Source of the DNA: an uncultured Bacteroidales bacterium
Lineage (GTDB): Bacteria; Bacteroidota; Bacteroidia; Bacteroidales; Muribaculaceae
Reading direction: 5' to 3'
DNA: 64,000 nt
Assembly: GCA_902792435.1 (NCBI GenBank)
Contig: CADAZN010000014.1
Span: 40,224 to 104,223, forward strand
Made by a program: the position numbers and the translations under genes. Position 1 is the first letter of the stretch, and each line of letters begins with the position of its first letter. A model generated the notes under the pieces. The model was not told the origin of the DNA and did no database searches. It saw only the letters and a list, made by a program, of their open reading frames with translations. This document shows, in pieces, positions 12,015 through 63,524 of this stretch.

Positions 12015-12035
12015 AGAAAAAAGCACATCACATGC

Positions 12036-12070
12036 AACTATGAACTCTTAACTGTGAACTATGAACTAAA
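12036..12070. repeat. Heptad array AACTNTG x5, abutting the TonB-receptor stop codon
   Basis: aactatg aactctt aactgtg aactatg aactaaa. Confidence 0.75.
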
Positions 12071-17980: not shown

Positions 17981-19165
17981 ATGATAAAGGATTTCAATTT
18001 TTACGCACCCACACGCGTGGTGTTTGGTCGTGAGTCGGAGAAGAAGATTGGTGAACTGGTAGCTGCCAATGGTGGCAAAAAGGTGCTGATCCACTATGGT
18101 GGCGGCTCGGCGCAGCGGTCGGGCTTGCTCGATGTGGTGCGAGAGCAGTTGCGTGGTGCAGGCATCGCATTCTGCGAGCTGGGCGGCGTGGTGCCCAACC
18201 CATTGCTGTCAAAGGTTCGCGAGGGAATTGAGCTATGCCGTCGCGAGGGAGTGGACTTCATCCTCGCCGTGGGTGGAGGCAGTGTTATCGACTCGTCGAA
18301 GGCGATAGGCTATGGCGTGCCTTACGATGGCGACGTGTGGGACTTCTGGGCAGGAAAGGCTGTGCCCAAGCAGTGCTTGCCCATTGGTGTGGTGCTGACC
18401 ATCCCTGCTGCCGGTAGCGAGATGTCGTCGAGCTGCGTGATTACCGCCGATGAGGGACTGCTCAAGCGCGGCATCAACAGCGACTTGTGCCGATGCCGAT
18501 TTGCCGTGATGAATCCCGAGCGCACCTTCACCCTGCCTCCTTACCAAACGGCAGCCGGTGCCACCGATATAATGATGCACACCATGGAGCGCTACTTCTC
18601 GAAATATGAGGATATGACGCTCACCGACGCCATCAGCGAGGCGCTGCTGCGCACCGTCAAGGATTCAGCGCTGGTAGTGATGCGCAACCCCGAGGACTAT
18701 CGTCATCGTGCCCAAATCATGTGGGCAGGCTCGCTGGCACACAACGACTTGACCGAGTGCGGCACCGAGAAAGACTTTGCCACCCATCGCCTCGAGCATG
18801 AGCTCAGTGCCCTCTTCGGGGTTACCCATGGCGCTGGCTTAGCAGCCATCTGGCCCTCGTGGGCACGCTATGTCAAGGACAAGCACTTGAGCCGATTTGT
18901 GCAGTTTGCCGTCAATGTGATGGGAGTCCCCAACGACTTCTCGCATCCCGAGGAGACTGCCGAACGAGGCATCTGCGCCGTTGAGGTATTCTATCGTCAG
19001 ATTGGTATGCCAACCAACATCCATGAGTTGCTGGGCCGTGAAATCACCGACCAGGAAATCGACACCATGGTCGAGAAATGCTCGCGCGGCGGCACCATCA
19101 CCCTCGGCGCCATGGAGGTCCTCGACACCCAAGCCATGCGCGACATCTACCTTATGGCCCGATGA
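17981..19165 (+). CDS. Iron-containing alcohol dehydrogenase (butanol DH/YqhD-like)
   Basis: Fe-ADH motifs (GGGSVIDSSKAI, the His-rich region HRLEHELSALFGVTHGAGL). The ATG at 17981 follows a TATCTTTG -7 box at 17945-17952, and the track start at 17909 lies upstream of that promoter. Confidence 0.85.
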   Translation: MIKDFNFYAPTRVVFGRESEKKIGELVAANGGKKVLIHYGGGSAQRSGLLDVVREQLRGAGIAFCELGGVVPNPLLSKVREGIELCRREGVDFILAVGGGSVIDSSKAIGYGVPYDGDVWDFWAGKAVPKQCLPIGVVLTIPAAGSEMSSSCVITADEGLLKRGINSDLCRCRFAVMNPERTFTLPPYQTAAGATDIMMHTMERYFSKYEDMTLTDAISEALLRTVKDSALVVMRNPEDYRHRAQIMWAGSLAHNDLTECGTEKDFATHRLEHELSALFGVTHGAGLAAIWPSWARYVKDKHLSRFVQFAVNVMGVPNDFSHPEETAERGICAVEVFYRQIGMPTNIHELLGREITDQEIDTMVEKCSRGGTITLGAMEVLDTQAMRDIYLMAR

Positions 19166-19245
19166 GGGATTAGGGATGAGGGATGAGTGAGCGCTTCGCG
19201 CTGATGAGGGATGAGTGGGTAGTGAGCGCTGATTAAGGACGAAAG
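19163..19245. repeat. Heptad array (G-rich), starting at the ADH stop codon
   Basis: tgaggga ttaggga tgaggga tgagtga gcgcttc gcgctga tgaggga tgagtgg gtagtga gcgctga ttaagga cgaaaga. Confidence 0.8.
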
Positions 19246-19273
19246 ATTAGGGAGGGTTTAAGCCCTCCCTAAT
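19246..19273. terminator. Central hairpin between convergent ADH and M13 peptidase genes
   Basis: Perfect 11-bp stem attagggaggg/ccctccctaat with a 6-nt loop. No clear U-tract is present. Confidence 0.45.
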
Positions 19274-19317
19274 CTATTGAATCAGCTGCACCCCTAAGCT
19301 GGGGATGGGTGTGACAG

Positions 19318-19397
19318 CCTCTCTAATCAATCATCCCTAATCACTCATCTCTAATCACTAATCACTCATCACTCATCCCTCATCCCCAATCAGCGCT
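19318..19397. repeat. Heptad array (C-rich), complement of the 19163-19245 array and abutting the M13 peptidase stop
   Basis: cctctct aatcaat catccct aatcact catctct aatcact aatcact catcact catccct catcccc aatcagc. Confidence 0.8.
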
Positions 19398-19399
19398 CC

Positions 19400-21412
19400 T
19401 TACCAAATCACTGCGCGTTTCTCTTTGGGGAGATACATTTTGTCGGTCTTCTTGATGTTGAAGGCTTTGTACCAAGCGTCGATCATTGGCAGGGCGGCGT
19501 TGACGCGGAGCTCGTGGGGCGAGTGGGTGTCGCTGTCAACGAGGTTGGCAAGCGTTTCGGGGGTGCTGTTGCTTGCCCACACGCGGGCGTTGGCAAGGAA
19601 GAAGCGCTGTGCTGGAGTGAAGCCGTCAACCTTCTTGAGAGGCTCCACCTTCATGCGGTTCTCGAAGGCGCGGTAGGCGATGTTGAGGCCGCCGTTGTCG
19701 CTCACGTTCTCGCCCAGGGTCTTCAGGCCGTTAACCTTCACGCCGGGGAGGATTTCCTGTGAGCCAAACCAGTCGGCAATCACCTTGGTGCGCTGGTCAT
19801 AGTTGGTCTTGTCCTCGGGGGTCCACCAGTTGGCAAGGTTTCCGTCCTTGTCGAAGAGGCAGCCCTTGTCGTCAAATCCGTGAGTCATCTCGTGGCCGAT
19901 AACCATACCGATGGCGCCGTAGTTGCTTGCATAGTCTGATTCTGGGTCAAAGAATGGAGGTTGCAGGATGGCGGCGGGGAAGTTGATGCTGTTGTAGCGC
20001 GAGTTGTAGAAGGCGTTCACAGTTTGTGGAGTGCAAGCCATCACGGTTTTGTCAACGGGCTTGCGCCAGTGCTTGCGCAGGCTTGCCTGGGTGGTCTCCT
20101 GCGAGATGCGGATGTAGTTCTCCACCAGGTTCTCGTTCTCACGGATGTCGATGTATTTCTCCATGTCCTGCCACTTGTCGGGGTAGCCCACATTGATGTG
20201 CATGGCGTGGAGTTTCTCGATGGCTTTAGCCTTGGTCTCGGGGCTCATCCAGGTGTTGTCCTTCAGGCGGTCCTCAAAGGCTTGCTGCAAGTCTTTCACG
20301 AGCTTCACCACGCGCTGCTTGCTGCTCTCGGGGAAGTATTTTTGCACATAGAGCTTGCCGATGGTCTCGCCTAGGCTGCCGCTGATGAGGCCCACGGCGC
20401 GCTTCCAGCGTGGCTGCTGCTCCTGCACGCCCGAGATTTTCTTGCTGGCCTCAAACGAGCGGTCGCTGAAGTCGTCCGACAGGAATCCTGCAAATTCCTT
20501 GACGATGCTAAGCTCCATGAAAGCTTTCCAGTCCTCGATGCTGGCATTTGCGAGCAGGTCTTCCACCACATGCACTGGCTCAATCTGTCCCACGTTCACG
20601 GTGTCGATGTCCTGTGGATATTTAATCACGTCGCGATAGGTCTCCCAGTCGATGCCCTTGAAGTCCTTCTTCAGCTGGTCCCAAGTCATGATGTGGATGC
20701 GCTTGTAGGGGTCGCGTGATTCCACCTGGTCGAGCTGGGTAACGCCAATCTTGCTCTCGATGGCCCACTCGGCCTCCATCATGCGTTGTGCCTCCTCCTC
20801 GCTGTGGCCCACCATCTTCAAGAGGTCCTTGTTGAGCTCCTTGATGGTGCTCACCACGAGCTTCTGCTGCTCGCTGGGGTTGGCGTAATATTCCTTCGAG
20901 AGCGATGCACCGCCATGGCCGGCGCCCATCATGTACTCATCGCTGTTAAATGGGTTCATGCCCAGGTAGATGCCGAAGGGCGCTGTGCCAAAGCCCTTGG
21001 CGTCGAGCTCATACATCACGCGTAGCATCTCCTCGCGGGTCTTGATGGCGCGCACCTGGTTGAGGTAGGGGAGGATGGGTTTGTAGCCCATCTCGTTGCG
21101 GCTCACGGTGTCCATATACAGGCGGTAGAGGCTGCCAATCTTTTGGCCGTCGGTGCCTTGTGGCAGATGTTTGCCGGCATACTCCATGATGAGGTCGTTG
21201 ATGCGGTCGTTGTTCTGCTCATACAGATCCATGAACGCACCGTTCTGGGTGTGCTGCTTGTCGAGGGGGTTAGCCTTGAGCCAGCCACCAACGGCATACT
21301 GCCAGAAGTTCTCTCCGGGTTTCACACTAAGGTCCATATTGGCCTTGTTGACTTGTGCCATGCCTGCCATGAAACTCAGGGCAAGGGCAATCACTAGAAA
21401 AGCTTTTTTCAT
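19400..21412 (-). CDS. M13 family zinc metallopeptidase (PepO/neprilysin-like), secreted or lipoprotein
   Basis: HEMTHGFDD (HExxH) and GENVSDNGGL (ENxADxGG-like), with an N-terminal signal peptide. Confidence 0.85.
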   Translation of the reverse strand: MKKAFLVIALALSFMAGMAQVNKANMDLSVKPGENFWQYAVGGWLKANPLDKQHTQNGAFMDLYEQNNDRINDLIMEYAGKHLPQGTDGQKIGSLYRLYMDTVSRNEMGYKPILPYLNQVRAIKTREEMLRVMYELDAKGFGTAPFGIYLGMNPFNSDEYMMGAGHGGASLSKEYYANPSEQQKLVVSTIKELNKDLLKMVGHSEEEAQRMMEAEWAIESKIGVTQLDQVESRDPYKRIHIMTWDQLKKDFKGIDWETYRDVIKYPQDIDTVNVGQIEPVHVVEDLLANASIEDWKAFMELSIVKEFAGFLSDDFSDRSFEASKKISGVQEQQPRWKRAVGLISGSLGETIGKLYVQKYFPESSKQRVVKLVKDLQQAFEDRLKDNTWMSPETKAKAIEKLHAMHINVGYPDKWQDMEKYIDIRENENLVENYIRISQETTQASLRKHWRKPVDKTVMACTPQTVNAFYNSRYNSINFPAAILQPPFFDPESDYASNYGAIGMVIGHEMTHGFDDKGCLFDKDGNLANWWTPEDKTNYDQRTKVIADWFGSQEILPGVKVNGLKTLGENVSDNGGLNIAYRAFENRMKVEPLKKVDGFTPAQRFFLANARVWASNSTPETLANLVDSDTHSPHELRVNAALPMIDAWYKAFNIKKTDKMYLPKEKRAVIW

Positions 21413-21582: not shown

Positions 21583-21657
21583 TTTTTGGGGGCCGCGCTG
21601 CGCGCTAAAGATTATTGCCCTTCGGGCTAAAATTTTAAAAGTTGTCAGTTCTCAGTT
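21583..21657 (+). repeat. ~75-bp intergenic repeat, copy B1
   Basis: tttttgggggccgcgctgcgcgctaaagatt..gccc-ttc-gggctaaaatt.taaaagtt recurs at 22271-22345. Confidence 0.8.
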
Positions 21658-21670
21658 GCTCACGTGGGGA

Positions 21671-21841
21671 ACACAAATTACCGTTAATTGACCGTGAATT
21701 ATCATTTAATTATCAGTTTGCCTTGAGGCTGGAGGGGCGCTGCGCTTAAAATTGGGTCAAGTTCAAATCCCTTCGGGACCGCACACCGTGCTTCGCACGA
21801 CTTATGCTTTTGAATCTCCCCGAGCTGAAGGTTTAATGAAA
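21671..21841 (+). repeat. 171-bp intergenic repeat, copy A1
   Basis: By eye it is identical to 22058-22228 except for 3 mismatches. Confidence 0.9.
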
Positions 21842-21931
21842 GGTTCAGCTGGTTCAGCTGGTTCGGTTGGGTCGCATGAGGCTTTTGGGTCTTTTGGGGC
21901 GCTTGGGACAAATGGGACAAATGGGACAAGG
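21842..21931. repeat. Nonamer-phased degenerate array, 10 units
   Basis: ggttcagct ggttcagct ggttcggtt gggtcgcat gaggctttt gggtctttt ggggcgctt gggacaaat gggacaaat gggacaagg. Confidence 0.8.
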
Positions 21932-22057
21932 AGTCAACTTTTTTCAGGCAAAGACAGTTCATAGTTAAGAGTTTTTAGTTTATAATATGTTCGTGTGTGC
22001 GCAAAGGTAGGTAGGGGGAGCGGTGGGAACAAGATTGAAAAGTGACGCGGTGTTTTT

Positions 22058-22228
22058 ACACAAATTACCGTTAATTGACCATAAATTATCATTTAATTAT
22101 CAGTTTGCCTTGAGGCTGGAGGGGCGCTTCGCTTAAAATTGGGTCAAGTTCAAATCCCTTCGGGACCGCACACCGTGCTTCGCACGACTTATGCTTTTGA
22201 ATCTCCCCGAGCTGAAGGTTTAATGAAA
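22058..22228 (+). repeat. 171-bp intergenic repeat, copy A2 (followed by a ~45-nt degenerate restart at 22229-22272)
   Basis: Direct repeat of 21671-21841, offset by 387 bp. Confidence 0.9.
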
Positions 22229-22270
22229 AATTACCATTAATTGACCGCAAATTATCGTTTTATTGTCAGT

Positions 22271-22345
22271 TTTTTGGGGGCCGCGCTGCGCGCTAAAGAT
22301 TGCTGCCCTGCGGGCTAAAATTATAAAAGTTCTCAGTAATCGGTT
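22271..22345 (+). repeat. ~75-bp intergenic repeat, copy B2
   Basis: Same as B1 with a few substitutions. The mini-hairpin loop differs (ttc versus tgc) while the stem gccc/gggc is kept. Confidence 0.8.
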
Positions 22346-31472: not shown

Positions 31473-31637
31473 GATGTTGTGAATTAGTTAATAAAAATTT
31501 ATTTGTTATTAATGGTTAATGAAAAGGCGAGTATTGTAAGGGTTAAACCGTTAAGCAACTTAAGTATGAATCGCAAAGGTAATAATATTTTACTTTTATT
31601 GCAAAAATATACCTAAAAAATTAATGCATAACTCATT

Positions 31638-31763
31638 ATTAGGGGAGAGTGAGAGGGATGAGTGATGAGTGATGAGGGGAGAGTGATGAGTGATGAGTGA
31701 TGAGGTGGGAGTGATGAGTGATGAGTGATGAGGGGGGAGTGATGAGGGGGGAGTGAGAGGGGG
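31638..31763. repeat. Heptad array, 18 units (TGAGTGA/TGAGGGG words) in the divergent spacer upstream of pckA
   Basis: attaggg gagagtg agaggga tgagtga tgagtga tgagggg agagtga tgagtga tgagtga tgaggtg ggagtga tgagtga tgagtga tgagggg ggagtga tgagggg ggagtga gaggggg. Confidence 0.85.
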
Positions 31764-31792
31764 TGTGCATTAACCAAGGCGCAGCTACTATA

Positions 31793-31820
31793 AACTATGA
31801 ACTCTGAACTCTTAACTAAT
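31793..31820. repeat. Heptad array AACTNTG x4
   Basis: aactatg aactctg aactctt aactaat. Confidence 0.7.
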
Positions 31821-32001: not shown

Positions 32002-33615
32002 ATGGCAAAATTTGATAAGTCAGTATTAGCGAAGTATGGTATCACCGACGTTCAGGAGGTGCTCTACAACCCCACCTATGAGGTATTGTTCAACGAAGAG
32101 ACCAAAGAAGGTCTTGAGGGATTTGACGTTGGCCAGGAAACTGAGCTCGGCGCCATCAACGTGATGACCGGTATCTACACCGGACGCTCGCCTAAGGACA
32201 AATTCATCGTTATGGACGAGAACAGCAAGGACACCGTTTGGTGGACTACCCCTGAGTATCCCAACGACAACCACCCCGCAAGCCTCGAGACTTGGGCTGC
32301 CGTTAAAGGCATGGCTCAAAAGCAGCTGAGCGGCAAGCGCCTGTTTGTGGTTGACGGTTTCTGCGGCACTCACAAGGACACTCGCATGAAGGTTCGCTTC
32401 ATCATGGAGGTGGCATGGCAGGCTCACTTTGTGACCAACATGTTTATCCGTCCACAGAACGAGGCAGAATTTGACCAGGAGCCCGACTTCATCGTTTACA
32501 CCGCCAGCAAGGCTAAGGTTGAGAACTACAAGGAGCTCGGCCTCAACAGCGAGACCGCCGTTGTGTTTAACGTATCGAGCAAGGAGCAGGTAATCCTCAA
32601 CACCTGGTATGGTGGCGAGATGAAGAAAGGCCTGTTCTCGATGATGAACTACTACCTGCCACTGAAGGGCATCGCCGCTATGCACTGCAGCGCCAACACC
32701 GACATGAACGGCGAGAACACCGCCATATTCTTCGGACTGAGCGGTACTGGTAAGACAACATTGTCGACCGATCCTAAGCGCAAACTCATTGGCGACGACG
32801 AGCACGGCTGGGACGACGAGGGTATCTTCAACTTCGAGGGTGGCTGCTATGCCAAGGTTATCAACCTCGACAAGGAGAGCGAGCCCGACATCTACAACGC
32901 TATCCACCGCGACGCACTGCTCGAGAACGTCACTGTTGACGCCGAGGGCAAGATTGACTTCGCCGACAAGAGCGTTACCGAGAACACTCGCGTTTCTTAT
33001 CCAATCTACCACATCAAGAACATCGTGCGCCCATTCAGCCACGGACCCGCTGCTAAGCAGGTTATCTTCTTGAGCGCCGACGCATTTGGCGTGCTGCCTC
33101 CAGTATCAATTCTGACTCCCGAGCAGACCAAGTACTACTTCCTGAGCGGCTTCACCGCTAAGTTGGCTGGTACCGAGCGCGGCATCACCGAGCCCACTCC
33201 AACCTTCAGCGCATGCTTTGGCCAGGCATTCCTTGAGTTGCACCCAACCAAGTATGCCGAGGAGCTCGTTAAGCGCATGCAGGTGAGTGGCGCCAAGGCT
33301 TACTTGGTTAACACTGGCTGGAACGGCACTGGCAAGCGCATCTCTATCAAGGACACCCGCGGCATCATCGACGCAATCCTTAACCACAGCATCGACAACG
33401 CTCCAACCAAGGAGATTCCATTCTTCAACTTCACCGTGCCTACTCAGCTCGAGGGCGTAGATCCTGGCATCCTTGATCCACGCGACACCTATGCTAACCC
33501 CGCCGAGTGGGAGGAGAAGGCTAAGGACTTGGCAAGCCGCTTCATCAAGAACTTTGCCAAGTATGAGAGCAACGAGGCTGGTAAGGCACTCGTAGCCGCT
33601 GGCCCACAGCTTTAA
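32002..33615 (+). CDS. pckA: Phosphoenolpyruvate carboxykinase (ATP)
   Basis: [13 protein letters not shown] kinase-1a P-loop, GDDEHGW, and length and N-terminus typical of ATP-dependent PckA. Confidence 0.95.
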
Positions 33616-33689
33616 TTTAATGCATAATGCACAATGCATAATGCATAATTGGGGCTGCGCTTTGGTTAATGCTTAATGCACAATTGATG
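33613..33689. repeat. Heptad array (ATGCATA words) starting at the pckA stop codon
   Basis: taattta atgcata atgcaca atgcata atgcata attgggg ctgcgct ttggtta atgctta atgcaca attgatg. Confidence 0.8.
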
Positions 33690-33755
33690 GAGGTTCGCTT
33701 ATCGCACACCGTGCTTCGCACGACTTATGCTGCTCACTCCATCGAGCTAAAGGTT
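33686..33755 (+). repeat. Short relative of the A repeat carrying the identical 29-nt core
   Basis: The core cgcacaccgtgcttcgcacgacttatgct (33703-33731) equals 21780-21808 and 22167-22195. It is flanked by gatggag/ctccatc (a 7-bp inverted repeat) and followed by cgagctaaaggtt (A copies: cgagctgaaggtt). Confidence 0.8.
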
Positions 33756-33824: not shown

Positions 33825-33873
33825 CCCCTCTCACTCATCACTCATCCCTCATCTCTCCTCCCTCCTCCCTCAA
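33825..33873. repeat. C-rich heptad array, inverted relative to 31638-31763
   Basis: ccctctc actcatc actcatc cctcatc tctcctc cctcctc. Its reverse complement shares the 20-mer gagggatgagtgatgagtga with the upstream array. Confidence 0.75.
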
Positions 33874-34511: not shown

Positions 34512-34922
34512 ATGAAACATTTTTTACTTATTGCACTTACTCTGTTGCTGACGGCCATCTCGGCCAACGCGCAGTCGGTCTACAACAGTAACAATTCCAC
34601 TGTGGGCTATGTGCGCAGCGACGGCCGTGTTGAGAACAACAACCACAGCTGCATAGGCTACATACGCAGCGATGGTCGCGTTGAGAACAACAATCACAGC
34701 TGCATAGGCTACATACGCAGCGACGGCCGCGTTGAGAACAGCAACCACAGCTGCGTAGGCTACATACGCAGCGACGGTCGCATCGAGAACAGCAACCACA
34801 GTTGCATTGGCTACGTGCGTGACGACGGCCGCGTCGAGAACAGCAACCACAGCTGCATAGGCCGTGTCGACGGCGTGTCGCGAGAGTGGGCCGCAGCATT
34901 TTTCTTTTTTTTCTTCAATTAA
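34512..34922 (+). CDS. Secreted small protein with five near-identical 17-aa repeats (GYIRSDGRVENxNHSCI), poly-Phe tail
   Basis: Signal peptide MKHFLLIALTLLLTAISANA, then 5 x 51-bp units at 34605-34859, ending AAAFFFFFFN. It is a paralog of 34029..34460. Confidence 0.75.
   Translation: MKHFLLIALTLLLTAISANAQSVYNSNNSTVGYVRSDGRVENNNHSCIGYIRSDGRVENNNHSCIGYIRSDGRVENSNHSCVGYIRSDGRIENSNHSCIGYVRDDGRVENSNHSCIGRVDGVSREWAAAFFFFFFN
34605..34859 (+). repeat. Five tandem 51-bp coding repeats
   Basis: Each unit encodes GY(I/V)R(S/D)DGR(V/I)EN(N/S)NHSC(I/V), with very few nucleotide differences between units. Confidence 0.9.
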
Positions 34923-34931: not shown

Positions 34932-36059
34932 ATGACTAAAAAACTTATTATGCCAGTACTTGCAATGCTGGCATTTTTTCAGTTAATGGCGCAAGAGTCG
35001 CTGTCCAGCGACTCGCTGCTGCGCCGTGAGGTGGCCCGCATGCTCATGGTGGGCTTCCGTGGCGACCAAATCGATGACAATAGTGATGCGGCACGCTATG
35101 TGCGCGACCTGCACGTGGGTAGCATAGTGCTCTTTGACGTGGACCTCACCAGCAATGGCCCTCGCAAGACAGGCACCCGCAACATCACCACCAAGAAGCG
35201 CTTGGCTAAGCTCACCGAGCAGCTGCAAGGCTATGCCGATGAGCCCCTGATTATCGCCGCCGACCAAGAGGGCGGCATGGTGTGCAGGCTCAAGCCCGAG
35301 TATGGCTTCCAGCCCACGGTAAATGCTCTATATCTAGGCACTCAAGACAACTGCGACACCACGCTTTACTACGCGATGCGCATTGCCAAGGAGATGAAGG
35401 AGTGTGGCGTGAATCTCAATCTGGCACCGGTGCTCGACATCCACCGCGAGGACAGTCCGCACCTAGGCCATTTCAAACGTTGTTTCTCGACCGATGTGGA
35501 CGTGATTGCACGCAACGCTGGCTGGTTTATCGACGCGCACTATAAGCACGGCATCTTGTGCGCTGTGAAGCATTTTCCAGGCCACGGCAGCGCCCTGGGT
35601 GACTCGCACGAGGGAATGGTCGACGTCACGTCGACGTGGAACGTTACCGAGCTAACGCCCTTTGAGAAACTTATATCACAGGAAAAGGTTGACGTGGTGA
35701 TGACGGCACACATCTACAACCGAAAGCTCGATCCCGATTATCCCGCAACCTTGTCACACAAAATCATTACCGAACTGCTGCGCAACAATCTGCACTACGA
35801 CGGCGTGGTGGTGACCGACGATATGTACATGGAAGGTATCTTGAGCCAGTACAGCATTCCCGAGGCTCTGGCTCTAGCAATCAACGCTGGCGCCGACATC
35901 CTGCTTGTGGGCAACAACATCGACACAGGATTTGAGGCTAACCGTCCGTTCAAGCTGGTTGACATCATCGTCAACCTGGTGAAGACCGGGAAGGTGCCCT
36001 ATGAGCGCATCCATGAGTCGAGCGAGCGCATCCTGCGCCTGAAGAATCGACTGAAGTGA
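34932..36059 (+). CDS. Glycoside hydrolase family 3 N-terminal-domain protein (NagZ-like beta-N-acetylhexosaminidase)
   Basis: KHFPGHGSALGDSHEG and VVVTDDMYMEG motifs, with a signal peptide. Confidence 0.8.
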   Translation: MTKKLIMPVLAMLAFFQLMAQESLSSDSLLRREVARMLMVGFRGDQIDDNSDAARYVRDLHVGSIVLFDVDLTSNGPRKTGTRNITTKKRLAKLTEQLQGYADEPLIIAADQEGGMVCRLKPEYGFQPTVNALYLGTQDNCDTTLYYAMRIAKEMKECGVNLNLAPVLDIHREDSPHLGHFKRCFSTDVDVIARNAGWFIDAHYKHGILCAVKHFPGHGSALGDSHEGMVDVTSTWNVTELTPFEKLISQEKVDVVMTAHIYNRKLDPDYPATLSHKIITELLRNNLHYDGVVVTDDMYMEGILSQYSIPEALALAINAGADILLVGNNIDTGFEANRPFKLVDIIVNLVKTGKVPYERIHESSERILRLKNRLK

Positions 36060-36126
36060 GATTAGGAATGAGGGATGAGTGATGAGGGATGAGTGATGAG
36101 GGATGAGTGATGATAGATTAGAGGGT
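36057..36126. repeat. Heptad array, 10 units, starting at the GH3 stop codon
   Basis: tgagatt aggaatg agggatg agtgatg agggatg agtgatg agggatg agtgatg atagatt agagggt. Confidence 0.85.
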
Positions 36127-36152
36127 GCGGCAGTGGCTGCGCCCTTTTATTT
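36123..36152 (+). terminator. Rho-independent terminator of the GH3 gene
   Basis: gggtgcggc-agtg-gctgcgccc, followed by ttttattt. Confidence 0.6.
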
Positions 36153-43282: not shown

Positions 43283-43336
43283 CTAGAATTTCTAGATTGT
43301 CTAGATATACTAGATTCTCTAGAAATTCTAGATATG
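43283..43336. repeat. Nonamer array CTAGANNNN x6
   Basis: CTAG occurs at 43283, 43292, 43301, 43310, 43319 and 43328, exactly 9 nt apart: ctagaattt ctagattgt ctagatata ctagattct ctagaaatt ctagatatg. Confidence 0.85.
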
Positions 43337-44666: not shown

Positions 44667-44807
44667 TATAGTTCTTAGTTTATAGTTTTTAGTTCTTAGT
44701 TACTTAGTTACTTGAGAGGGGAGTTAATAGTTCATAGTTGAGAGTTCATAGTTCATAGTGGGGAGAGTTGAGAGGGGCTTAATCAATGCACAATTCTCTT
44801 CCCTCTC
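44667..44807. repeat. Heptad array, about 20 units (TAGTT/TCATAG words) with one 1-nt phase slip at 44702
   Basis: tatagtt cttagtt tatagtt tttagtt cttagtt (a) cttagtt acttgag aggggag ttaatag ttcatag ttgagag ttcatag ttcatag tggggag agttgag aggggct taatcaa tgcacaa ttctctt ccctctc. Confidence 0.8.
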
Positions 44808-46061: not shown

Positions 46062-46138
46062 GGGGGGATAATCTCTAATCACTAATCAATAATCCCTAAT
46101 CCCTAATCTCTAATCTCTAATCAGCGCTAATCGCTTAA
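46062..46138. repeat. Heptad array TAATCNC x11, abutting the rubrerythrin stop codon
   Basis: gggggga taatctc taatcac taatcaa taatccc taatccc taatctc taatctc taatcag cgctaat cgcttaa. Confidence 0.85.
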
Positions 46139-50374: not shown

Positions 50375-50375
50375 T

Positions 50376-50431
50376 CAACTCATAACTCATAACTGAATAC
50401 TCACAACTGATAACTGATAACTCTGAACTAA
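50376..50431. repeat. Heptad array (T/C)AACT(C/G)A x8 filling the whole spacer between two same-strand genes
   Basis: caactca taactca taactga atactca caactga taactga taactct gaactaa. Confidence 0.85.
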
Positions 50432-50432
50432 T

Positions 50433-51064: not shown

Positions 51065-53437
51065 ATGAGTAAAAAAATAATAGCTTTACTGATAATAGCC
51101 CTTGCAGCATTTGATGCTGTGAATGCTGCGATAGTGACCGAGTCACAAGCCCGCACTATTGCTGGGCGCTTCTTCAACGTTGACATGCCCGCGCGGCCAG
51201 CTGCGATGAAGGCCAAAGGCAAGAGAGGCAATGCAGCCCCATTCTATGTGTTTAACAACCCCGAGCAGCCAGGATGGGTGATAGTGGCCGGCGACGACCG
51301 AGCACGCACCATTCTTGCCTATGGCGATGAGGATTATTTCGACGAGGGCGAGGTGCCCGAGTGCGTTCAAGACTGGCTCAGCGGTTATGTGGAACAAATC
51401 GAGGCTATCGACAAAGTCGAGGCCGAGCCACAGGTAGTCACCGAAGCAAGTGTGATAGGTGCAACGAAAACGAAAATAGCTCCGCTTCTATGCACCAAGT
51501 GGGCACAAGGCTTGCCTTTCAACCAAGGGTGCCCTAGCTACTCTACAACCGATGGCACTAGCTACTGCCCGGCAGGTTGTGTTGCAATTGCTATGGCTCA
51601 AATCATGTATTATTACAAGTCGAGTTATGGCTGCAATGCCATTCCTGCTTATACCTCAAATTACGACGGTTTCATCAACGAGCGCCCAGCACTTCCTAAA
51701 ACCACCTTCAACTGGGCAATCATGAATCCTTGGTATCACAATCAAGCCAGCTCCTCTACTAGTGCTAAGGAGGTTCAGAAGCTTGTGAAATACTGTGGTC
51801 AGGCAGTGCAAATGGACTATGGAAAGAAAACGTCGAGCGCCACTAGCCAACGCAATGCTTTTACCTACTACTTTGGCTATGACAAACTTAGCCAGCAAAT
51901 CAAGCGCGAGGATGTGAACGCCACTACGTGGGAAAACGTCATCTACACCGAGATTGCATCGGGGCGTCCTGTCTACTTCAGCGCGCGCAAGCTCAATGGT
52001 GGGCACGCATTCATTTGCGACGGATATGATGGGAATGGACTATACCACATCAACTGGGGATGGCGGGGTAGCAACAATGGCTTCTTCGCTCTCAATGCAT
52101 TGAGCGACGGCAATAGCGGTGGCACTGGTGCCGCCAGCGGTGAGGAAGGTTACACTATGAGTCTTCAGGTCATTATCGGTCTTGAGCCAAGCAAATCTAA
52201 TTCGACAAGCACTGACTACAACACTGTGGCACTATATAGAAACGATGACGATAATATTGTTCCTGTTCAGGTCCCCACCACTAGCTACAGCCGTTCGGGC
52301 ACGTCGTCTTCGTTTACCGATGTGAAACTTATTGCCAACTACTGGAACAACTCTAGCCAGACCTACACCTACGACTTGGGTTGGGCGCTCTACGACAGCA
52401 ACGGTAATGTCAAGAGCGTACACACTGTGGTAAGCGGTAAGAGCATCCAGCCTGGTTACTACACCTATCCCACTAGCAGCATTGCAATTGGCAGTGGTCT
52501 ATCGTCGGGCACCTATTATCTTAAGCCCATTTGCCGCCTCAGTGGTCAAAACACATGGTACTTGGTTCGTGGAGCCCAAATGAACTATGTGAAAGCTAAA
52601 ATCACCTCAACCAGTCTCACTCTTGAAGTGTTTGACGATTTGAAAATGCAGAACCTGAAAATCAATTCAGTGACATTTGGCTCGGTGAAGAAGGTTGGCA
52701 GCCCACTGGAAATAAAGTTGGGAGTTTCTAATCAAGGCCAAACCGATTACAGTTACATCTACATGTGGGTCAACAACACTCTCGTGAGCGCCACTACAAC
52801 CGACGTGGCAGCAGGTGGTAGCGGCATTGTGACAATGTACCACACTCCATCGCAGGTGGGCACCAACAGCTTTAAATTCACTGCCGATCGTCAAGGGACC
52901 AAGACCCTTTACACCACCAGCGTGAACATTGGCGCTGCAACTGCTGCATCGTTCACCGCAAGCAACTCGTCCACCATGTCGGGCACTACAATAACTGTAA
53001 AGAGCGTGCTCAAGAACACTGGTTCGGCAACCTACAACGACTACATTGTGGCCAAGATGTGGAAACACTGGCCCACATCGGGCAACACAGGCTATAGCGA
53101 CAATTCAATAGCTCAACCACTTTACCTCAATAGTGGTGGCTCAACAACCTTGAACTTCAAGTTCACTGGTCTTGAGCATGGCACTAAGTACCATTTCTCG
53201 ATTTTCTATTATAGCAACGGTGAACTTGTGAAGGCAGGTGAGAGCACTTACAACATGACTCCCAGCATCTACGACATCAATGAGGACGGCGCTGTGACCG
53301 CTGCCGACATAACAGCCATTTACGATGCTATGCTTAATGGAGACTTGAGATACCTGGGTTACAGCGACCTTAATGGCGACGGCGTAGTAACCGCTGCCGA
53401 TATCACCATGCTTTATACTTATATTTTACAGCAATAA
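51065..53437 (+). CDS. C10 family cysteine peptidase with propeptide, CARDB/Ig-like middle region and C-terminal dockerin-like module
   Basis: Propeptide QARTIAGRFFN, Cys context CPAGCVAIAMAQIMYYY, His context GGHAFICDGYD and INWGWRG. The dockerin pair DINEDGAVTAADITAIY...DLNGDGVVTAADITMLY lies at 53270-53434. Confidence 0.85.
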   Translation: MSKKIIALLIIALAAFDAVNAAIVTESQARTIAGRFFNVDMPARPAAMKAKGKRGNAAPFYVFNNPEQPGWVIVAGDDRARTILAYGDEDYFDEGEVPECVQDWLSGYVEQIEAIDKVEAEPQVVTEASVIGATKTKIAPLLCTKWAQGLPFNQGCPSYSTTDGTSYCPAGCVAIAMAQIMYYYKSSYGCNAIPAYTSNYDGFINERPALPKTTFNWAIMNPWYHNQASSSTSAKEVQKLVKYCGQAVQMDYGKKTSSATSQRNAFTYYFGYDKLSQQIKREDVNATTWENVIYTEIASGRPVYFSARKLNGGHAFICDGYDGNGLYHINWGWRGSNNGFFALNALSDGNSGGTGAASGEEGYTMSLQVIIGLEPSKSNSTSTDYNTVALYRNDDDNIVPVQVPTTSYSRSGTSSSFTDVKLIANYWNNSSQTYTYDLGWALYDSNGNVKSVHTVVSGKSIQPGYYTYPTSSIAIGSGLSSGTYYLKPICRLSGQNTWYLVRGAQMNYVKAKITSTSLTLEVFDDLKMQNLKINSVTFGSVKKVGSPLEIKLGVSNQGQTDYSYIYMWVNNTLVSATTTDVAAGGSGIVTMYHTPSQVGTNSFKFTADRQGTKTLYTTSVNIGAATAASFTASNSSTMSGTTITVKSVLKNTGSATYNDYIVAKMWKHWPTSGNTGYSDNSIAQPLYLNSGGSTTLNFKFTGLEHGTKYHFSIFYYSNGELVKAGESTYNMTPSIYDINEDGAVTAADITAIYDAMLNGDLRYLGYSDLNGDGVVTAADITMLYTYILQQ

Positions 53438-53472
53438 CCTGTTTTTTTCAGTTAAATAACGATGCTAATACC

Positions 53473-55818
53473 ATGAGAAAGATATCTTTTTGGATATTGG
53501 TGACAATCGCTGCGTTTCTAAACGTAGTGAGTGCCACCACGGTTACCGAGAGCCAGGCCCGCGCCATTGCTGGCAGGTTTTTCAATGTGGACATGCCACA
53601 ACGGCCAGCGGCATTGAAGGGCAAAGGTGCTGCGGCAGCCTATTATGTGTTCAACAATCCCGAGCAGCCTGGGTGGGTGATAGTCGCTGGCGACGACCGG
53701 GCGCTCACCATTCTTGCCTATGGCAACGAGGGTTATTTCGACGACACCGAAGTGCCCGAGTGCGTTCAGGACTGGCTCAATGACTATGCCGAGCAGCTGG
53801 AGCATCTCGACACCGCACAAAATCTCTCCCCTCTCGACTCTCCCCTCTCAACTGTTTCAGCAGGCAACAAAATGCGCGTCGCTCCGTTGCTTAGCTGCAA
53901 CTGGGCGCAGGGGCTGCCCTTCAACCAGCAATGCCCCACCTACACCACATCTTCGGGGGCTACAAGTTACTGCCCAGCAGGCTGTGTGGCCACAGCAATG
54001 GCGCAGATTCTGTACTACTACAAGTCGGGCACTCCCACTGCTGTCCTTCCTGCCTACACCTCGAGCACTCTCGATAATTACTTGGAAGAACTGCCTGCCA
54101 CCACGTTCAACTACAGCATTATGAACGATTGGTATGACAAAGCCGAGAACACCAGCGCCAGCGCTCAAGAAGCAGCGCGCCTGGTGCGCTACTGCGCGCA
54201 ATCGGTAAAGATGAAGTTTGGCAAGTCGTCATCGAGCGCAACTAGCCAGCGCAACGCTTTTGTCTATTACTTTGGTTTTGATAAAGACGCACAACAGCTG
54301 GCACGCACCGACTACACCGCTGCCGAGTGGGAGGACATCGTGTATAACGAGCTTGCCAACGGACGACCAGTTTTCATTAGCGCCCACAAGTCGAGTGGCG
54401 GCCATGCTTTCGTGTGCGATGGCTACACCGATGGCCTTTACCACATCAATTGGGGGTGGCGCGGGCACCAGAACGGATATTTCGCCCTTAATGCCCTCAA
54501 CGACGATAATGCCGGTGGCACAGGAGCAGCAAGCGGCGAGGAAGGTTACACCATCAACGTGCAAATCATGACTGGCTTGCAGCCCGACCTGGGCTCGGGC
54601 ACCAGCACCAATGGCAACATCGTGGGCTTGTACCTGCCATGTGAGGCGGGAGCCACAAGCTACACTCGCAGCAACAGCTCGGAGAACTTCACCGGCGTGT
54701 CGCTCACTGCCTACTATTGGAACTACTCCTCTCAAAACTATGTCTACGACCTGGGATGGGGACTCTATGACAGTGACGGGAACCTTGTGAGCACTCACAA
54801 CGTGGCATCGGGACGCTCGCTGAGCGGAGGTTACTACACCACCATCACTAAGTCGATAAGTTTTGGTAAAGACCTCACTGGCACTTACTATCTCAAACCA
54901 GTGTGCCGCCTCAATGGCAGCAGCACCTATTATCCCTGTCGTGGCTCGGGTGTGAATCACATTAAGGCGACTATCACAGCAACTAAAGTCATTTTGAAGG
55001 CATATGATGAGCAGGAAATGCAGAAATTGAAAATCAACTCGGTGACTGCAGGTCCTATCAAGAAAGTGGGTAGCCCATTGAAGCTCACGCTCAATGTCAC
55101 CAACCAGGGCCTCACCGACTACAGCAGCATCTACATGTGGGTAGATGATAATATGGTTAGTGGCACCTATACCGACATCGCCCCAGGCGAGACAGGCGAC
55201 GTGGTGATGAACTACACCCCATCACAAGCCGGGACCCTAACGTTTGAGTTCACCTCCGACAAGGATGGAACCAAGACTCTCAAGACGCAAAATATCACCA
55301 TCAGTTCGGCAACGGCAGCCACCATCACTGGCAGCACTACATCGTCGGTGACTGGCACAACATTCAACGCTAAGATTGCAGCCAAGAACACCAATACCAA
55401 CACTTACAACGACTACATCGTTGCCAAGCTCTACAAGAAAGAGAACAACGCTGGCTCCAGTGGTTATTACTGCTCAGCACAGTCACAAATTGTGAATCTT
55501 GCGTCAGGCAACACTCAAAATGTGGAGTTTGCCTTTACCAACCTTGACTACAACGAGACCTATTTCGTGATTTTCTACTATTATAATAACGGTGAACTGG
55601 TGCGCATCAACGCCACAGCATCTAGGAAAGTGGAATCACCCTACGATGTGCTCGACGTGAATCAAGACGGAGCAGTAACTTCCAGCGACATCACCGCAAT
55701 CTACGATGTGCTCCTAGGTAATGGAAACCGTTATCGCCCATATAGCGACGTGAATGGCGACGGCTCGGTTACCGCAGCCGACATCACCACCATCTACAAC
55801 TACATCCTCGGCAACTAA
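53473..55818 (+). CDS. C10 family cysteine peptidase, tandem paralog of 51065..53437, C-terminal dockerin-like module
   Basis: Same architecture: CPAGCVATAMAQILYYY, GGHAFVCDGY and INWGWRG, with the dockerin pair at 55654-55815. Confidence 0.85.
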   Translation: MRKISFWILVTIAAFLNVVSATTVTESQARAIAGRFFNVDMPQRPAALKGKGAAAAYYVFNNPEQPGWVIVAGDDRALTILAYGNEGYFDDTEVPECVQDWLNDYAEQLEHLDTAQNLSPLDSPLSTVSAGNKMRVAPLLSCNWAQGLPFNQQCPTYTTSSGATSYCPAGCVATAMAQILYYYKSGTPTAVLPAYTSSTLDNYLEELPATTFNYSIMNDWYDKAENTSASAQEAARLVRYCAQSVKMKFGKSSSSATSQRNAFVYYFGFDKDAQQLARTDYTAAEWEDIVYNELANGRPVFISAHKSSGGHAFVCDGYTDGLYHINWGWRGHQNGYFALNALNDDNAGGTGAASGEEGYTINVQIMTGLQPDLGSGTSTNGNIVGLYLPCEAGATSYTRSNSSENFTGVSLTAYYWNYSSQNYVYDLGWGLYDSDGNLVSTHNVASGRSLSGGYYTTITKSISFGKDLTGTYYLKPVCRLNGSSTYYPCRGSGVNHIKATITATKVILKAYDEQEMQKLKINSVTAGPIKKVGSPLKLTLNVTNQGLTDYSSIYMWVDDNMVSGTYTDIAPGETGDVVMNYTPSQAGTLTFEFTSDKDGTKTLKTQNITISSATAATITGSTTSSVTGTTFNAKIAAKNTNTNTYNDYIVAKLYKKENNAGSSGYYCSAQSQIVNLASGNTQNVEFAFTNLDYNETYFVIFYYYNNGELVRINATASRKVESPYDVLDVNQDGAVTSSDITAIYDVLLGNGNRYRPYSDVNGDGSVTAADITTIYNYILGN

Positions 55819-57270: not shown

Positions 57271-57295
57271 AGCACTGCAAAGTTAATAAAAAGTT

Positions 57296-57449
57296 TTTAG
57301 TTATCAGTAATCAGTTATCAGTAATCAGTTTTCAGTAATCAGTTTTCAGCAATCAGTTTTTAGTTCTTAGTTCTCTAATCCCTAATCCCTCATCTCTCAT
57401 CCCTCATCCCTCATCCCTCATCCCTCATCTCTCATCCCTAATCATTAAT
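57296..57449. repeat. Heptanucleotide-phased degenerate tandem array, 22 units
   Basis: Splits without any phase slip into tttagtt atcagta atcagtt atcagta atcagtt ttcagta atcagtt ttcagca atcagtt tttagtt cttagtt ctctaat ccctaat ccctcat ctctcat ccctcat(x4) ctctcat ccctaat cattaat. Confidence 0.85.
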
Positions 57450-58379
57450 TTAGAACAGGAAGAAAAGCGACACGCCAGTCACCGAAATCAATGCACCTAG
57501 CACACTCTTGGCGGTTATGGGCTGCTTGAAGAGCCACCATGCCGGCAGGATGATAATGATGGGTGTCAATGCCATAAGGGTGCTGGCGATGCCGGCACTA
57601 GTATATTGCACGGCGAGCAACGAGCATCCCACTCCCACAAAGGGGCCAAAGATTGTTGTCAATGTGGCAACTGTCATGCTTGTGCGGTCGGTCACGTTCT
57701 TGCGCAGCGAGGTGAAACCTTCGCGGAAAGCGAGCAAGAGGAAGAAGCCTGTGATACCCGCCAGACAGCGGAAAACGTTGGCATAGAAAGGCAATATCCA
57801 TGGCTCGCAAGGTGCTGCCAGCGAGGCTTCGTAGTGATCCATACCTATTTTGCTCAGCACAAGACCCACGCCTTGGCACACGGCGGCACCTATGGCAAAG
57901 AGCACTCCGTTGAGAGGCAACTTGAGCGAGAGACGATGGCTGCCATCGCCACGGCCAAGCACCGTGATGGCGATACCCGTGAGTGTTACCACCATGGCTA
58001 CAATGCCCATGGGCCTTATCTCCTGTCCTAGTGTGAACCACGCCATGATGGCGGCGGTAATGGGCGCCAGTGTCATGAACAGTTGGCCGAACTTCGATCC
58101 AATGATGATGTAGCATTGAAAGAGGCAGAAGTCGCCTATCACATAGCCCACAAGTCCTGAGAGCATCATCCACATGTAGGCCTCGCCACTAGCCTTGGCA
58201 GGCAACGGGCTGCCCGTCACCACCCAAAACAAGATAGCCGAGAACACTAAAGTGATGGCCATGCGCACAAAGTTGAGCGTCACGTTGCCCATGCGCTTGC
58301 TGCCCATTTCACTGAGCAGTGCTGTCGCGGTCCACGAGAATGCCACGCCAATTGATATCAGTTCGCCTAAATATTGCAT
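57450..58379 (-). CDS. EamA/DMT-superfamily transporter
   Basis: Ten TM segments arranged as two EamA-like halves. Confidence 0.75.
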   Translation of the reverse strand: MQYLGELISIGVAFSWTATALLSEMGSKRMGNVTLNFVRMAITLVFSAILFWVVTGSPLPAKASGEAYMWMMLSGLVGYVIGDFCLFQCYIIIGSKFGQLFMTLAPITAAIMAWFTLGQEIRPMGIVAMVVTLTGIAITVLGRGDGSHRLSLKLPLNGVLFAIGAAVCQGVGLVLSKIGMDHYEASLAAPCEPWILPFYANVFRCLAGITGFFLLLAFREGFTSLRKNVTDRTSMTVATLTTIFGPFVGVGCSLLAVQYTSAGIASTLMALTPIIIILPAWWLFKQPITAKSVLGALISVTGVSLFFLF

Positions 58380-62259: not shown

Positions 62260-62294
62260 CTGAAAACTGATTACTGAGAACTGAAAGCTCTGCG
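62260..62294. repeat. Heptad array CTGANNN x5
   Basis: ctgaaaa ctgatta ctgagaa ctgaaag ctctgcg. Confidence 0.7.
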
Positions 62295-62297: not shown

Positions 62298-63524
62298 TTA
62301 GTCAAGTAGTATGTTATAGATGGCTGTAATATCACCCGATGTGATGTTGCCGTCGCCATTAACATCGCTCGTAGAGAGATAAGTTTCGTCGCTATTGAGC
62401 AGGTAGTTGTAGAGTGCGGTGATGTCGGCCGCAGTTACGTTGCCGTCGCCGTTCACATCGCCAGGCTCTGCCGCAGCCACTGCATCGGGATGCAGGTCGA
62501 TGGCGCCACACACCTCGGTAGAGGTCTCGCCAAGCCAACCGCATTGCTGAAGCACTGCACAATACACCTTAACAAAGTCAATCTTCTTGAGCTCTTTGGG
62601 GGTTCCGTCATCATTCACAGCCCAGTCAAGCTTGAAGCCTTTGTTGGCTGTTTCATAGCCAGCAGGGTCATCATAGGTATAGCCATAAGACCAGTCGGTG
62701 CGGTTGTCAACATATCCCCAGTCATAGAATCGCTGAACCCAGTATTCTGTGTTGCCTGTGCCCTCGTTTGCGGCATTACATGGCAACTTGGTGCCCTCGA
62801 AGGTCAAGGTCTCACCCTCTACCCATTGTGGCCAATAGCTTTGACGATGGAAAGAGTTCTTTGAAACATATCCTTCCTGCAGGCTGTCAACACTGTTGCA
62901 AGTCCAACGGATGTACTCGGCATCGATAATTGATCCTGTTCCAGGAACTGGAACCTTGTCTTCATCGGGCTTGTAATAAGTGATTGTGAAATGATGCTGC
63001 GTGCGTGGATTGTAATATTCGCTGCCGGCAAGCTCATACCAGGGGTCATCGGGAATGCCGTTGCCGTTCACATCACGGCTCACCATCACGATGCCTGGCT
63101 CGCTGCTGCCACCCGCTGTTGAAGACCCTTGGGCCTGGAAACCATTGCCGAAAATCTGCAAGTCATACTCGCCCTCGACATTCACAACTGGGTGGTCGAA
63201 GCCAAACACAACATATCCGCCAAATGAGCCCAGACTTATCATGCCTGGCTTCACGTTGTGGGTAGTGTCGTTAACAACGACAATAGAGCCGTCGGGCATC
63301 TCCACTTCCTCGCTTGTGATAGTTGTCTTGCCGCAAATAGCCTTCTCGGCACGGGCAATAACACTGTCGCGAGGTTCACCTTGAACATAGTTATACGTAG
63401 GAAGTGTGTTGATAAACTGTCCTGGCGCTGGCACTAGGTCAAAAACCTTAGTGATGTAAGGCTTGTTCTGCGCTTGCACCATCAGTGCAATAAATACTAA
63501 CGATAAAAGTAATGTACGTTTCAT
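62298..63524 (-). CDS. Secreted hypothetical protein with C-terminal dockerin-like module
   Basis: Signal peptide MKRTLLLSLVFIALMVQA. The C-terminal DVNGDGNVTAADITALYNYLL...DVNGDGNITSGDITAIYNILLD lies at 62301-62462. Confidence 0.7.
   Translation of the reverse strand: MKRTLLLSLVFIALMVQAQNKPYITKVFDLVPAPGQFINTLPTYNYVQGEPRDSVIARAEKAICGKTTITSEEVEMPDGSIVVVNDTTHNVKPGMISLGSFGGYVVFGFDHPVVNVEGEYDLQIFGNGFQAQGSSTAGGSSEPGIVMVSRDVNGNGIPDDPWYELAGSEYYNPRTQHHFTITYYKPDEDKVPVPGTGSIIDAEYIRWTCNSVDSLQEGYVSKNSFHRQSYWPQWVEGETLTFEGTKLPCNAANEGTGNTEYWVQRFYDWGYVDNRTDWSYGYTYDDPAGYETANKGFKLDWAVNDDGTPKELKKIDFVKVYCAVLQQCGWLGETSTEVCGAIDLHPDAVAAAEPGDVNGDGNVTAADITALYNYLLNSDETYLSTSDVNGDGNITSGDITAIYNILLD

Follow-up and report, generated by a model that had tools for sequence, protein, structure and literature searches.

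What are the tandem heptamers that occupy the spacer upstream of recF in an uncultured Bacteroidales bacterium of the family Muribaculaceae, and what has produced arrays of the same construction elsewhere on its contig? The window that we analysed is a 64,000-nt stretch of contig CADAZN010000014.1 (assembly GCA_902792435.1), and the tract that raises the question occupies positions 57296-57449, between the genes for an EamA transporter and RecF. All of the arrays in the window lie outside open reading frames (ORFs) and fill the unconstrained DNA that separates a stop codon from the following functional signal, whether a terminator hairpin, a -7 box or a start codon. The arrays belong to the known class of heptanucleotide simple-sequence repeats (SSRs), and we think it probable that they are filler generated by slippage and filtered by selection, which would be transcribed in untranslated regions (UTRs).

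Read in the sense of the two flanking genes, the recF spacer runs from a TAA stop through (GATGAGR)n, (GATTAGR)n and (AACTRAN)n to AACTTTTTAYTAACTTTGCAGTGCT and the ATG. Its features are the following.

57373 to 57449, minus strand: G-family array, GATGAGR then GATTAGR, 11 units, purine-rich in the sense of the gene
57296 to 57372, minus strand: AACT-family array (AACTGAT/TACTGAT/AACTAAG/AACTAAA), 11 units, in sense and upstream of recF
57278 to 57285, minus strand: match TAACTTTG to a -7 promoter box, as read from the sequence, 7 nt before the recF ATG (57270)

The TAA stop of the EamA transporter gene occupies 57450-57452, and the G-family array begins directly past it. The initial annotation had divided the 154 nt of the tract into 22 heptamers with no slip of phase. 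Tandem Repeats Finder (TRF) resolved the tract into three sub-arrays (57299-57364, 57355-57374 and 57378-57443), each with 0% indels, which agrees with that description within blocks, whereas a phase cannot be defined across blocks of unrelated words. The box TAACTTTG matches TAnnTTTG, which we take to be the Bacteroidetes -7 promoter consensus. A TAnnTTTG(CA) box was found 5-23 nt ahead of the recF ATG in all Muribaculaceae examined except L138 (window 57271-57286; contigs L009, L012 and L140), and it was kept across strains, other species and other genera while the arrays upstream of it varied. An invariant AACTTTTTAYTAACTTTG stands between the array and the ATG, and the variable part does not include the core promoter. 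Because the box is only 7 nt before the ATG, its position implies that the recF mRNA predicted for the window's species is nearly leaderless.

To place this tract among the other spacers, long ORFs in the window were used as a gene map, which is crude but was largely confirmed by Pfam, and which gave 34 spacers totalling 7,282 nt. Autocorrelation of the pooled spacers gave a lag-7 match of 0.340 versus 0.2705 ± 0.006 in dinucleotide shuffles (z 11.5), with harmonics at lag 14 (z 9.9) and lag 21 (z 8.7), whereas coding DNA of the window (lag-7 match 0.247) had no signal beyond its 3-nt periodicity. The period-7 signal that the initial annotation had expected in spacers, over both shuffled and coding controls, was therefore confirmed for the window. 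A sliding scan of the window identified 13 period-7 segments, all 13 of them intergenic and all flanked by ORFs whose products have Pfam support. The other periods scanned (4 to 13, and 15) returned 0-2 segments each, and the seven segments of period 14 were identical to period-7 arrays. TRF reported arrays of period 7 (or 14, 21 or 28) at every one of the 12 further tracts listed beforehand, including 12036-12070 and 62260-62294, which are genuine arrays but short, at 5 units each. Overall, the window carries about 2.0 arrays per 10 kb.

The earlier description of these tracts as strictly phased was overstated, as 44667-44807 is a composite that is interrupted by non-periodic sequence and slips by 8 nt, and 31647-31746 has 5% indels. 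Its finer details were accurate: all five contacts with a stop codon (19163, 33613, 36057, 46135 and 57450), the complete filling of a 58-nt spacer (50375-50432) by an array, and a GC mini-hairpin of exactly two units at 19190-19202. Arrays were present in three of the seven convergent spacers, six of the 18 co-directional ones and one of the eight divergent ones, the last being a strain-specific rearrangement. By Pfam the genes flanking them are ordinary housekeeping genes (recF, EamA transporter, PEPCK, PGI, rubrerythrin, Fe-alcohol dehydrogenase, M13 peptidase and GH3). A scan of the window at Rfam gathering thresholds and a tRNA scan returned no match. An identity as clustered regularly interspaced short palindromic repeats (CRISPR), miniature inverted-repeat transposable elements (MITE) or repetitive extragenic palindromes (REP) was rejected, as the arrays have no spacers, consist of 7-nt head-to-tail units and have no terminal inverted repeats.

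The evidence that bears most directly on origin came from strain comparisons, for which we used eight contigs with a 100%-identical RecF and strain contigs at other array loci, including strains whose PEPCK proteins are identical (L001 is GCA_016648415.1), drawn from NCBI, ENA and Logan assemblies. In the five contigs that keep both flanking genes, the EamA-recF spacer was 179, 179, 151, 151 and 137 nt long, with differences of -42, -28 and -28 nt; the numbers of units and their variants differed between strains while the order of the blocks was constant. The array at 46062 was 28 nt (4 units) shorter in L001. From the GH3 stop to its terminator, the window has 63 nt, L136 and L137 have 28 nt (-35) and L135 has 37 nt. 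The array blocks downstream of PEPCK differed by -7, +7 and -21 nt between strains, and the spacer at 50375 by +49, +56 and +49 nt. This comparison of unit numbers, which the initial annotation had proposed, showed that 11 of 14 array length differences were multiples of 7 (chance 1/7 each), the remaining three being non-multiples. Array-free spacers in the same strains differed by 0 or 1 nt, and a 123-nt non-array stretch downstream of PEPCK was constant in length.

Together, the series of whole-unit lengths and the constancy of array-free spacers indicate that the arrays are real and hypermutable by whole units, and are not an assembly artefact. Two Logan contigs, L006 (1-119) and L007 (1-126), start inside the flagship array at recF, showing that assembly is disturbed there, as it would be if the arrays had been created by assembly or polishing of short-read metagenomes. 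We consider the probability of such an artefact negligible. The same 179-nt spacer, with arrays identical to those of the window, was obtained in L002 and L004, which come from independent samples and assemblers. In addition, the alleles form a coherent series whether the assembly comes from NCBI, ENA or Logan, typical read or k-mer spans exceed the arrays in length, and published finished genomes contain repeats of the same class.

Two synteny breakpoints coincided with arrays. In L003 (9676-10003) the gene upstream of recF is replaced, with the junction inside the array and with the extra words GAACTGA, GAAGTGA and GATGGAA. In the PEPCK upstream region (window 31473-31820, compared with 2100-2500 of L135-L137), the arrays are absent in three strains that have a different neighbour gene. 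Recombination at arrays could explain these breakpoints; the one in L003 could instead be an assembly chimera.

Beyond the species, individual arrays were not conserved. In the congener L009 (90% RecF identity) the EamA-recF spacer is 84 nt long and holds only degenerate relics, and arrays occur elsewhere: a mirror-image pair with the G-arm first, made of a different word, GGATCGA (2827-2996), and an AACT/TAACTGA-type array of about 130 nt that runs up to a start codon (11890-12025). A congener with 86% RecF identity retained a short AACT array alone. In genera with 66-72% RecF identity, 0 arrays were found in 11-21 kb, versus 2.0 per 10 kb in the window. The array load is thus lineage-specific, being high in the window's species and lower in two congeners, with none seen in the other genera. 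Of the four roles offered by the initial annotation, neutral filler generated by slippage is best supported by these data, given the whole-unit differences between strains and the lack of conservation between species.

The arrays have the three properties of heptanucleotide SSRs and long simple-sequence repeats (LSSRs): tandem repetition, beyond chance length, of a unit in the 5-11 nt range with heptamers predominant, a non-coding site and polymorphism in copy number between close relatives. Their description in the initial annotation as heptameric arrays filling spacers, like the short tandemly repeated repetitive (STRR) sequences of cyanobacteria, was apt. The STRR words of Mazel et al. (1990) are reportedly CCCCAGT (STRR1), TTGGTCA (STRR2) and CAACAGT (STRR3). 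None of these is used in the window, where we found GATGAGG, GATTAGG, GATGAGT, AACTGAT, AACTAAG, AACTATG and TAATGCA, and the host is not cyanobacterial, the relatives of its RecF being from Muribaculaceae metagenome-assembled genomes (MAGs) and gut metagenomes. Tandem repetition and a high mutability of copy number are shared with the SSRs of phase-variable contingency loci. Those usually have 1-5 nt units, placed in surface or virulence genes either within the ORF or between promoter elements, where copy number switches expression, whereas the arrays flank housekeeping genes such as recF, PEPCK, PGI and rubrerythrin. Heptanucleotides are the commonest unit of long SSRs in prokaryotes according to Mrázek (2007, as related in PMC4679880), and with these LSSRs, as far as that account describes them, and with the STRR sequences the window arrays share tandem heptamers, many non-coding copies, a sporadic phylogeny, the prevalence of period 7 and a proposed origin by slippage.

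A close likeness is to the G-rich heptamer SSRs of Xanthomonas and Nostoc described by Rehm (2015; PMC4692102), which are on the coding strand within 50 bp past stop codons and on the non-coding strand upstream of ORFs, and are rare in divergent spacers. They vary in length between Xanthomonas species and are mostly transcribed, and no function was identified for them. Like these GGGNATC repeats, the window arrays include G-rich heptamers that are dispersed, intergenic, variable in unit number, sometimes in inverted pairs and beside housekeeping genes, and they are similarly infrequent between divergent genes. They differ in their words (GATGAGG, GATTAGG and GATGAGT), in their gut Bacteroidales host and in having units that carry stop triplets. 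Whereas the GGGNATC repeats, which reportedly form G-quadruplexes (G4) in vitro, prefer four units, with four or more G3+ tracts joined by short loops, the window arrays have 7-18 units, and a canonical G4 motif was present in one of seven.

Arrays of TAACTGA just upstream of start codons were reported by MacGregor (2015; PMC4679880) in Beggiatoaceae, cyanobacteria and five Bacteroidetes, and that paper also describes other heptamers in those Bacteroidetes, which include Paludibacter of the Bacteroidales. The remark in the initial annotation that no equivalent had been described for Bacteroidota is therefore outdated. Literal TAACTGA/AACTGAT units occur in 50376-50431, in the recF spacer and in L009, and as in MacGregor's cases there are other heptamer arrays in the same spacer, reversed sets past stop codons, and related species with no array at the site. 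In contrast to those cases, the window units are more degenerate (AACTAAG, AACTATG, AACTCAT), Muribaculaceae are absent from that paper's list, and the recF array is upstream of the -7 box rather than in a leader. In Nostoc, heptamer repeats that precede recF and recO are reported to affect expression (Pradhan 2022; bioRxiv 10.1101/2022.06.06.494920). In the literature searched, we did not find GATGAGG, CCCTCAT or GATTAGG as bacterial repeat words, nor heptamer arrays in Muribaculaceae.

Do the arrays do anything where they lie? The G family is composed of GATGAGG, GATGAGT and GATTAGG words, whose purine-rich strand contains no C. Outside the recF spacer, its arrays, the hairpins beside them and a further array of TAATGCA words are as follows.

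19163 to 19245, plus strand: G-family array that starts with the Fe-alcohol dehydrogenase TGA and includes the two-unit GC hairpin GCGCTTCGCGCTGA and a 28-nt higher-order duplication
19244 to 19275, no strand assigned: central hairpin AGATTAGGGAGGG-TTTAA-GCCCTCCCTAATCT of head-to-head heptamer units, the core of a spacer-long hairpin
19318 to 19397, minus strand: G-family array directly past the M13 peptidase stop, purine-rich in the sense of that gene, the mirror of the array at 19163
31638 to 31763, plus strand: G-family array GATGAGT/GATGAGG with G-runs and a 28-nt higher-order unit, in a divergent spacer; strain-specific, at a synteny breakpoint
33613 to 33689, plus strand: TAATGCA-family array that begins with the TAA stop of PEPCK and has two blocks, each varying by exactly ±7 nt between strains
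33825 to 33873, minus strand: G-family array, C-rich on the plus strand, past a hairpin; 65, 44 or 70 nt between anchors, depending on the strain
36057 to 36126, plus strand: G-family array of alternating GATGAGG/GATGAGT, starting with the TGA of the GH3 gene
36120 to 36147, plus strand: intrinsic-terminator-like hairpin and T-run directly after the GH3 array, the top match of the terminator scan; conserved between strains
46062 to 46134, minus strand: G-family array GATTAGR, directly past the rubrerythrin TAA
46018 to 46056, minus strand: terminator hairpin AATCCCGCCCAGG...CCTGTGGCGGGATT with a T7 run after it, on the downstream side of the rubrerythrin array

Five of the seven G-family arrays are in sense at, or no more than 3 nt from, a stop codon: 19163 (+), 19318 (-), 36057 (+), 46134 (-) and 57449 (-). 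The other two are 31638, in the divergent spacer, and 33825, which is C-rich in the sense of the plus-strand genes; a small minus-strand ORF was considered as an account of the latter, and none was convincing. As terminator hairpins come after the arrays at 36057 and 46134, these arrays would be inside the predicted 3' UTRs of the GH3 and rubrerythrin genes. The palindrome AGCGCT, often as GAGCGCTGAT, was observed at the edges of, or within, G-family arrays by stops (19188-19202, 19226-19231, 19391-19396 and 46122-46127).

On their purine-rich strand the arrays contain 144 stop triplets in 950 array nt versus 70.9 expected by composition, with 55 on the complementary strand; the corresponding z of 12.8 is too high, as the units of a repeat are not independent observations. 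The initial annotation was thus right that the arrays are rich in stop codons, at about one per unit on that strand and twice the compositional expectation, and right that stops fall in all frames, as all three are closed in every array of at least six units. With five arrays beginning at a stop codon, these features are what would be expected of frame-independent translational stop pads that were selected to back up the natural stop. We regard this role as very improbable. The GGGAATC repeats of Xanthomonas have the same sense placement after stops and no stop triplet on either strand, the AACT arrays at 12036 and 62260 are directly past stops in their stop-poor orientation, and 31638 and 33825 are not sense-after-stop at all. 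Moreover, one or two backup stops would be enough, such that 10-18 units are superfluous, and the majority of the window's genes lack an array.

The second family, AACT, is built from AACTGAT, TAACTGA, AACTAAG and AACTATG words, and its arrays outside the recF spacer are listed here.

12036 to 12070, plus strand: short, 5-unit AACT-family array with a minus-strand gene on either side, antisense to both
31793 to 31820, plus strand: AACT-family array AACTATG/AACTCTG, not part of the conserved promoter region of PEPCK, whose start is about 180 nt downstream; absent in other strains
44667 to 44762, minus strand: two AACT-family arrays, AACTAAG/AACTATA (44667-44709) abutting the PGI start and TATGAAC (44722-44762), with non-periodic sequence and an 8-nt slip between them
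50376 to 50431, plus strand: AACT-family array AACTCAT, TAACTGA, filling the 58-nt spacer from the LPG-synthase stop to the next start
62260 to 62294, plus strand: short AACT-family array AACTGAA/TACTGAG, in sense to the upstream RNase H gene, past a hairpin, and antisense to the stop of the adjacent dockerin gene

TAACTGA occurs three times in 50376-50431, and the recF spacer holds TAACTGA, TTACTGA and AAACTGA. Four of the six AACT arrays are in the forward orientation, two of them abutting a start (44667 and 50376), the recF one behind the -7 box and one 180 nt away, and the two reversed arrays are directly past stop codons (12036 and 62260).

This arrangement raises the possibility that the arrays are functional cis-elements acting in RNA, the G family in termination or stability at the 3' UTR (through G-quadruplexes, R-loops or pausing, or a bound protein) and the AACT/TAACTGA words as initiation or regulator-binding sites upstream of starts. 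The sense G-arrays at stops and upstream of terminator hairpins, the sense AACT arrays upstream of starts, the array of about 130 nt that reaches a start in L009, the prediction that pure arrays are essentially unstructured as RNA, and the expression effects reported or proposed by MacGregor (2015) and Pradhan (2022) are all consistent with it, as is the polarity described below. We nevertheless consider it rather unlikely, while the most credible of the alternatives to filler. The sole canonical G4 motif among the G-arrays of the window is in the array at 57373-57449, and such motifs are gained and lost among strain alleles, which led us to reject G4 formation as the unifying property in this genome. 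The number of units is free to vary between strains (e.g., the GH3 3' UTR ranges from 28 to 63 nt), arrays are absent from the orthologous recF spacer of a congener and from other genera, the genes beside them share no function, and no regulatory role was found by Rehm (2015).

How far do these placements extend beyond the lineage? A scan for (GATKAGR)x4 with one genome per species returned at least 120 stretches, which span Cyanobacteria, Planctomycetota, Bacteroidota, Acidobacteriota, Chloroflexota, Myxococcota, Verrucomicrobiota, Firmicutes, Proteobacteria and Patescibacteria; this and the other cross-phylum counts refer to the matches listed. The arrays in those phyla drift among GACTGGG, GACTAGG, GATTAGG and GATGAGG. 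The first of these is the complement of cyanobacterial STRR1, and the drift runs from it through GACTAGG to GATTAGG. The same loci also carry 295 period-7 arrays of 114 other words by TRF, with period 7 dwarfing all others. In viral contigs, GATGAGG arrays were only 2-3 times commoner than composition-matched permutations. A special word shared across phyla was rejected on these grounds: what is general is the period of 7, not the word.

Among the matches listed, arrays no more than 40 nt past a stop were G-rich in sense in 38 cases and antisense in 12 (p 3e-4), a bias also seen in the subset with GC<0.56 (18 versus 6), and those just before starts were antisense in 18 cases and sense in 9. 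Inverted array pairs, whose order is independent of gene calls, had the G-arm first in 13 of 13, and in 17 of 17 when the window pair (19166-19399), L009 and the viral contigs L144 and L158 were added. The strand bias relative to the upstream gene that the initial annotation had suggested examining is thus present both in the window, with five of seven G-arrays in sense at a stop, and across phyla, and the placement described by Rehm holds in both. Bias between replication strands was rejected as the cause of orientation, as adjacent plus- and minus-strand genes each have a sense G-array (19163 and 19318).

The fixed order of the pairs suggests insulators or terminators, in which a polymerase bound for an ORF would transcribe a C-rich strand resembling Rho-utilisation sites and G-first pairs would form bidirectional hairpins. 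In the convergent spacer 19166-19399 either gene is trailed by its own sense G-array, and the region 19160-19405 folds as one long hairpin with a minimum free energy of -116.9 kcal/mol (z -8.8). The mirror arrangement in L009 (2827-2996) is built from different words, and Rehm's rule (PMC4692102) places the G strand with its 5' end against the ORF, in either ORF orientation. Even so, this explanation seems improbable to us, as most window arrays are unpaired and have a small hairpin terminator of the ordinary kind after them, neither strand of the AACT family is C-rich, and the argument is purely inferential, including the putative action of Rho in this lineage.

A broader version of the same idea is that polar heptamer arrays are functional gene-boundary elements across phyla, with a polarity derived from the transcription or translation machinery and some lineage-specific factor driving their proliferation in scattered lineages, including this Muribaculaceae genus. 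It would account for the contact of the ORF with the G strand's 5' end and for inverted pairs always having the G-arm first, through termination assisted by G-rich sense RNA or R-loops when polymerase leaves a gene and through C-rich, Rho-loading RNA for polymerases entering one. We judge it unlikely, if less so than the insulators.

Slippage-generated filler remains the explanation that we prefer. Replication slippage or unequal recombination would give rise to the arrays, with 7-nt units being favoured, and selection would clear them from coding DNA, where heptamers would be purged as their length is no multiple of 3, and would filter their orientation elsewhere. The stop-rich, C-free GATGAGG/GATTAGG strand may be tolerated as sense directly past stops and transcribed in 3' UTRs, and the A-rich, unstructured AACTGAT/TAACTGA words may be tolerated, or be mildly useful, as leaders before the starts of Bacteroidota, which do not depend on Shine-Dalgarno sequences. 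Head-to-head arrays in convergent spacers would secondarily become long terminator-like hairpins, and arrays may also be sites of synteny breakage. Several observations weigh against this explanation. A stop-codon filter cannot be the general cause, since stop-free GGGAATC repeats follow the same rule; the 17 of 17 G-first pairs and the 38 to 12 sense bias after stops among the matches listed exceed what a weak filter of tolerance would give; and the order of blocks at recF (GATGAGR, GATTAGR, AACT) is identical in all strains. In addition, transcription of the arrays is predicted from their position relative to putative terminators, and the sample is small, covering 64 kb and the flanks of a few loci, with gene calls outside the window made by ORF heuristics.

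With these findings, the bacteria known to be rich in heptamers, a scattered set, come to include a gut Bacteroidales lineage, and the placement and polarity rules of the Xanthomonas, Nostoc and Beggiatoaceae repeats are reproduced in an independent phylum. The arrays are natural multi-locus markers of the variable-number tandem repeat type, which separate strains with identical housekeeping proteins. Short-read contigs break at them and synteny breakpoints coincide with them, which is relevant to the quality of Muribaculaceae MAGs from the mouse and human gut and to the tracking of strains there.

Other repeats were also observed in the window. A period-9 array, CTAGATTTT (also with 18- and 27-nt units), lies at 43283-43333 in the convergent spacer by the PGI stop and has palindromic CTAG cores. 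Two repeats lie in a 1.5-kb spacer upstream of a helix-turn-helix gene and a cluster of C5-methylase and restriction genes: a direct one of 171 nt (21671-21841 and 22058-22228, with 98% identity) and one of 75 nt (21583-21657 and 22271-22345, with 89% identity). A 28-nt core of the repeats in 21583-22345, CGCACACCGTGCTTCGCACGACTTATGC, recurs exactly at 33703-33730 in the 3' spacer of PEPCK and is kept in other strains; it had no Rfam match, and could be a dispersed small element or a small RNA. Within a gene of the 5-fold beta-flower family (Bflower_2), a 51-nt tandem repeat of 4.9 copies with 87% matches (34614-34862) encodes a 17-residue repeat. Lastly, several proteins with dockerin domains are encoded at 51065-55818 and 62298-63524 and in L001-L014, including paired C10 peptidases with Inhibitor_I69, a combination that is unusual for a Bacteroidales genome.

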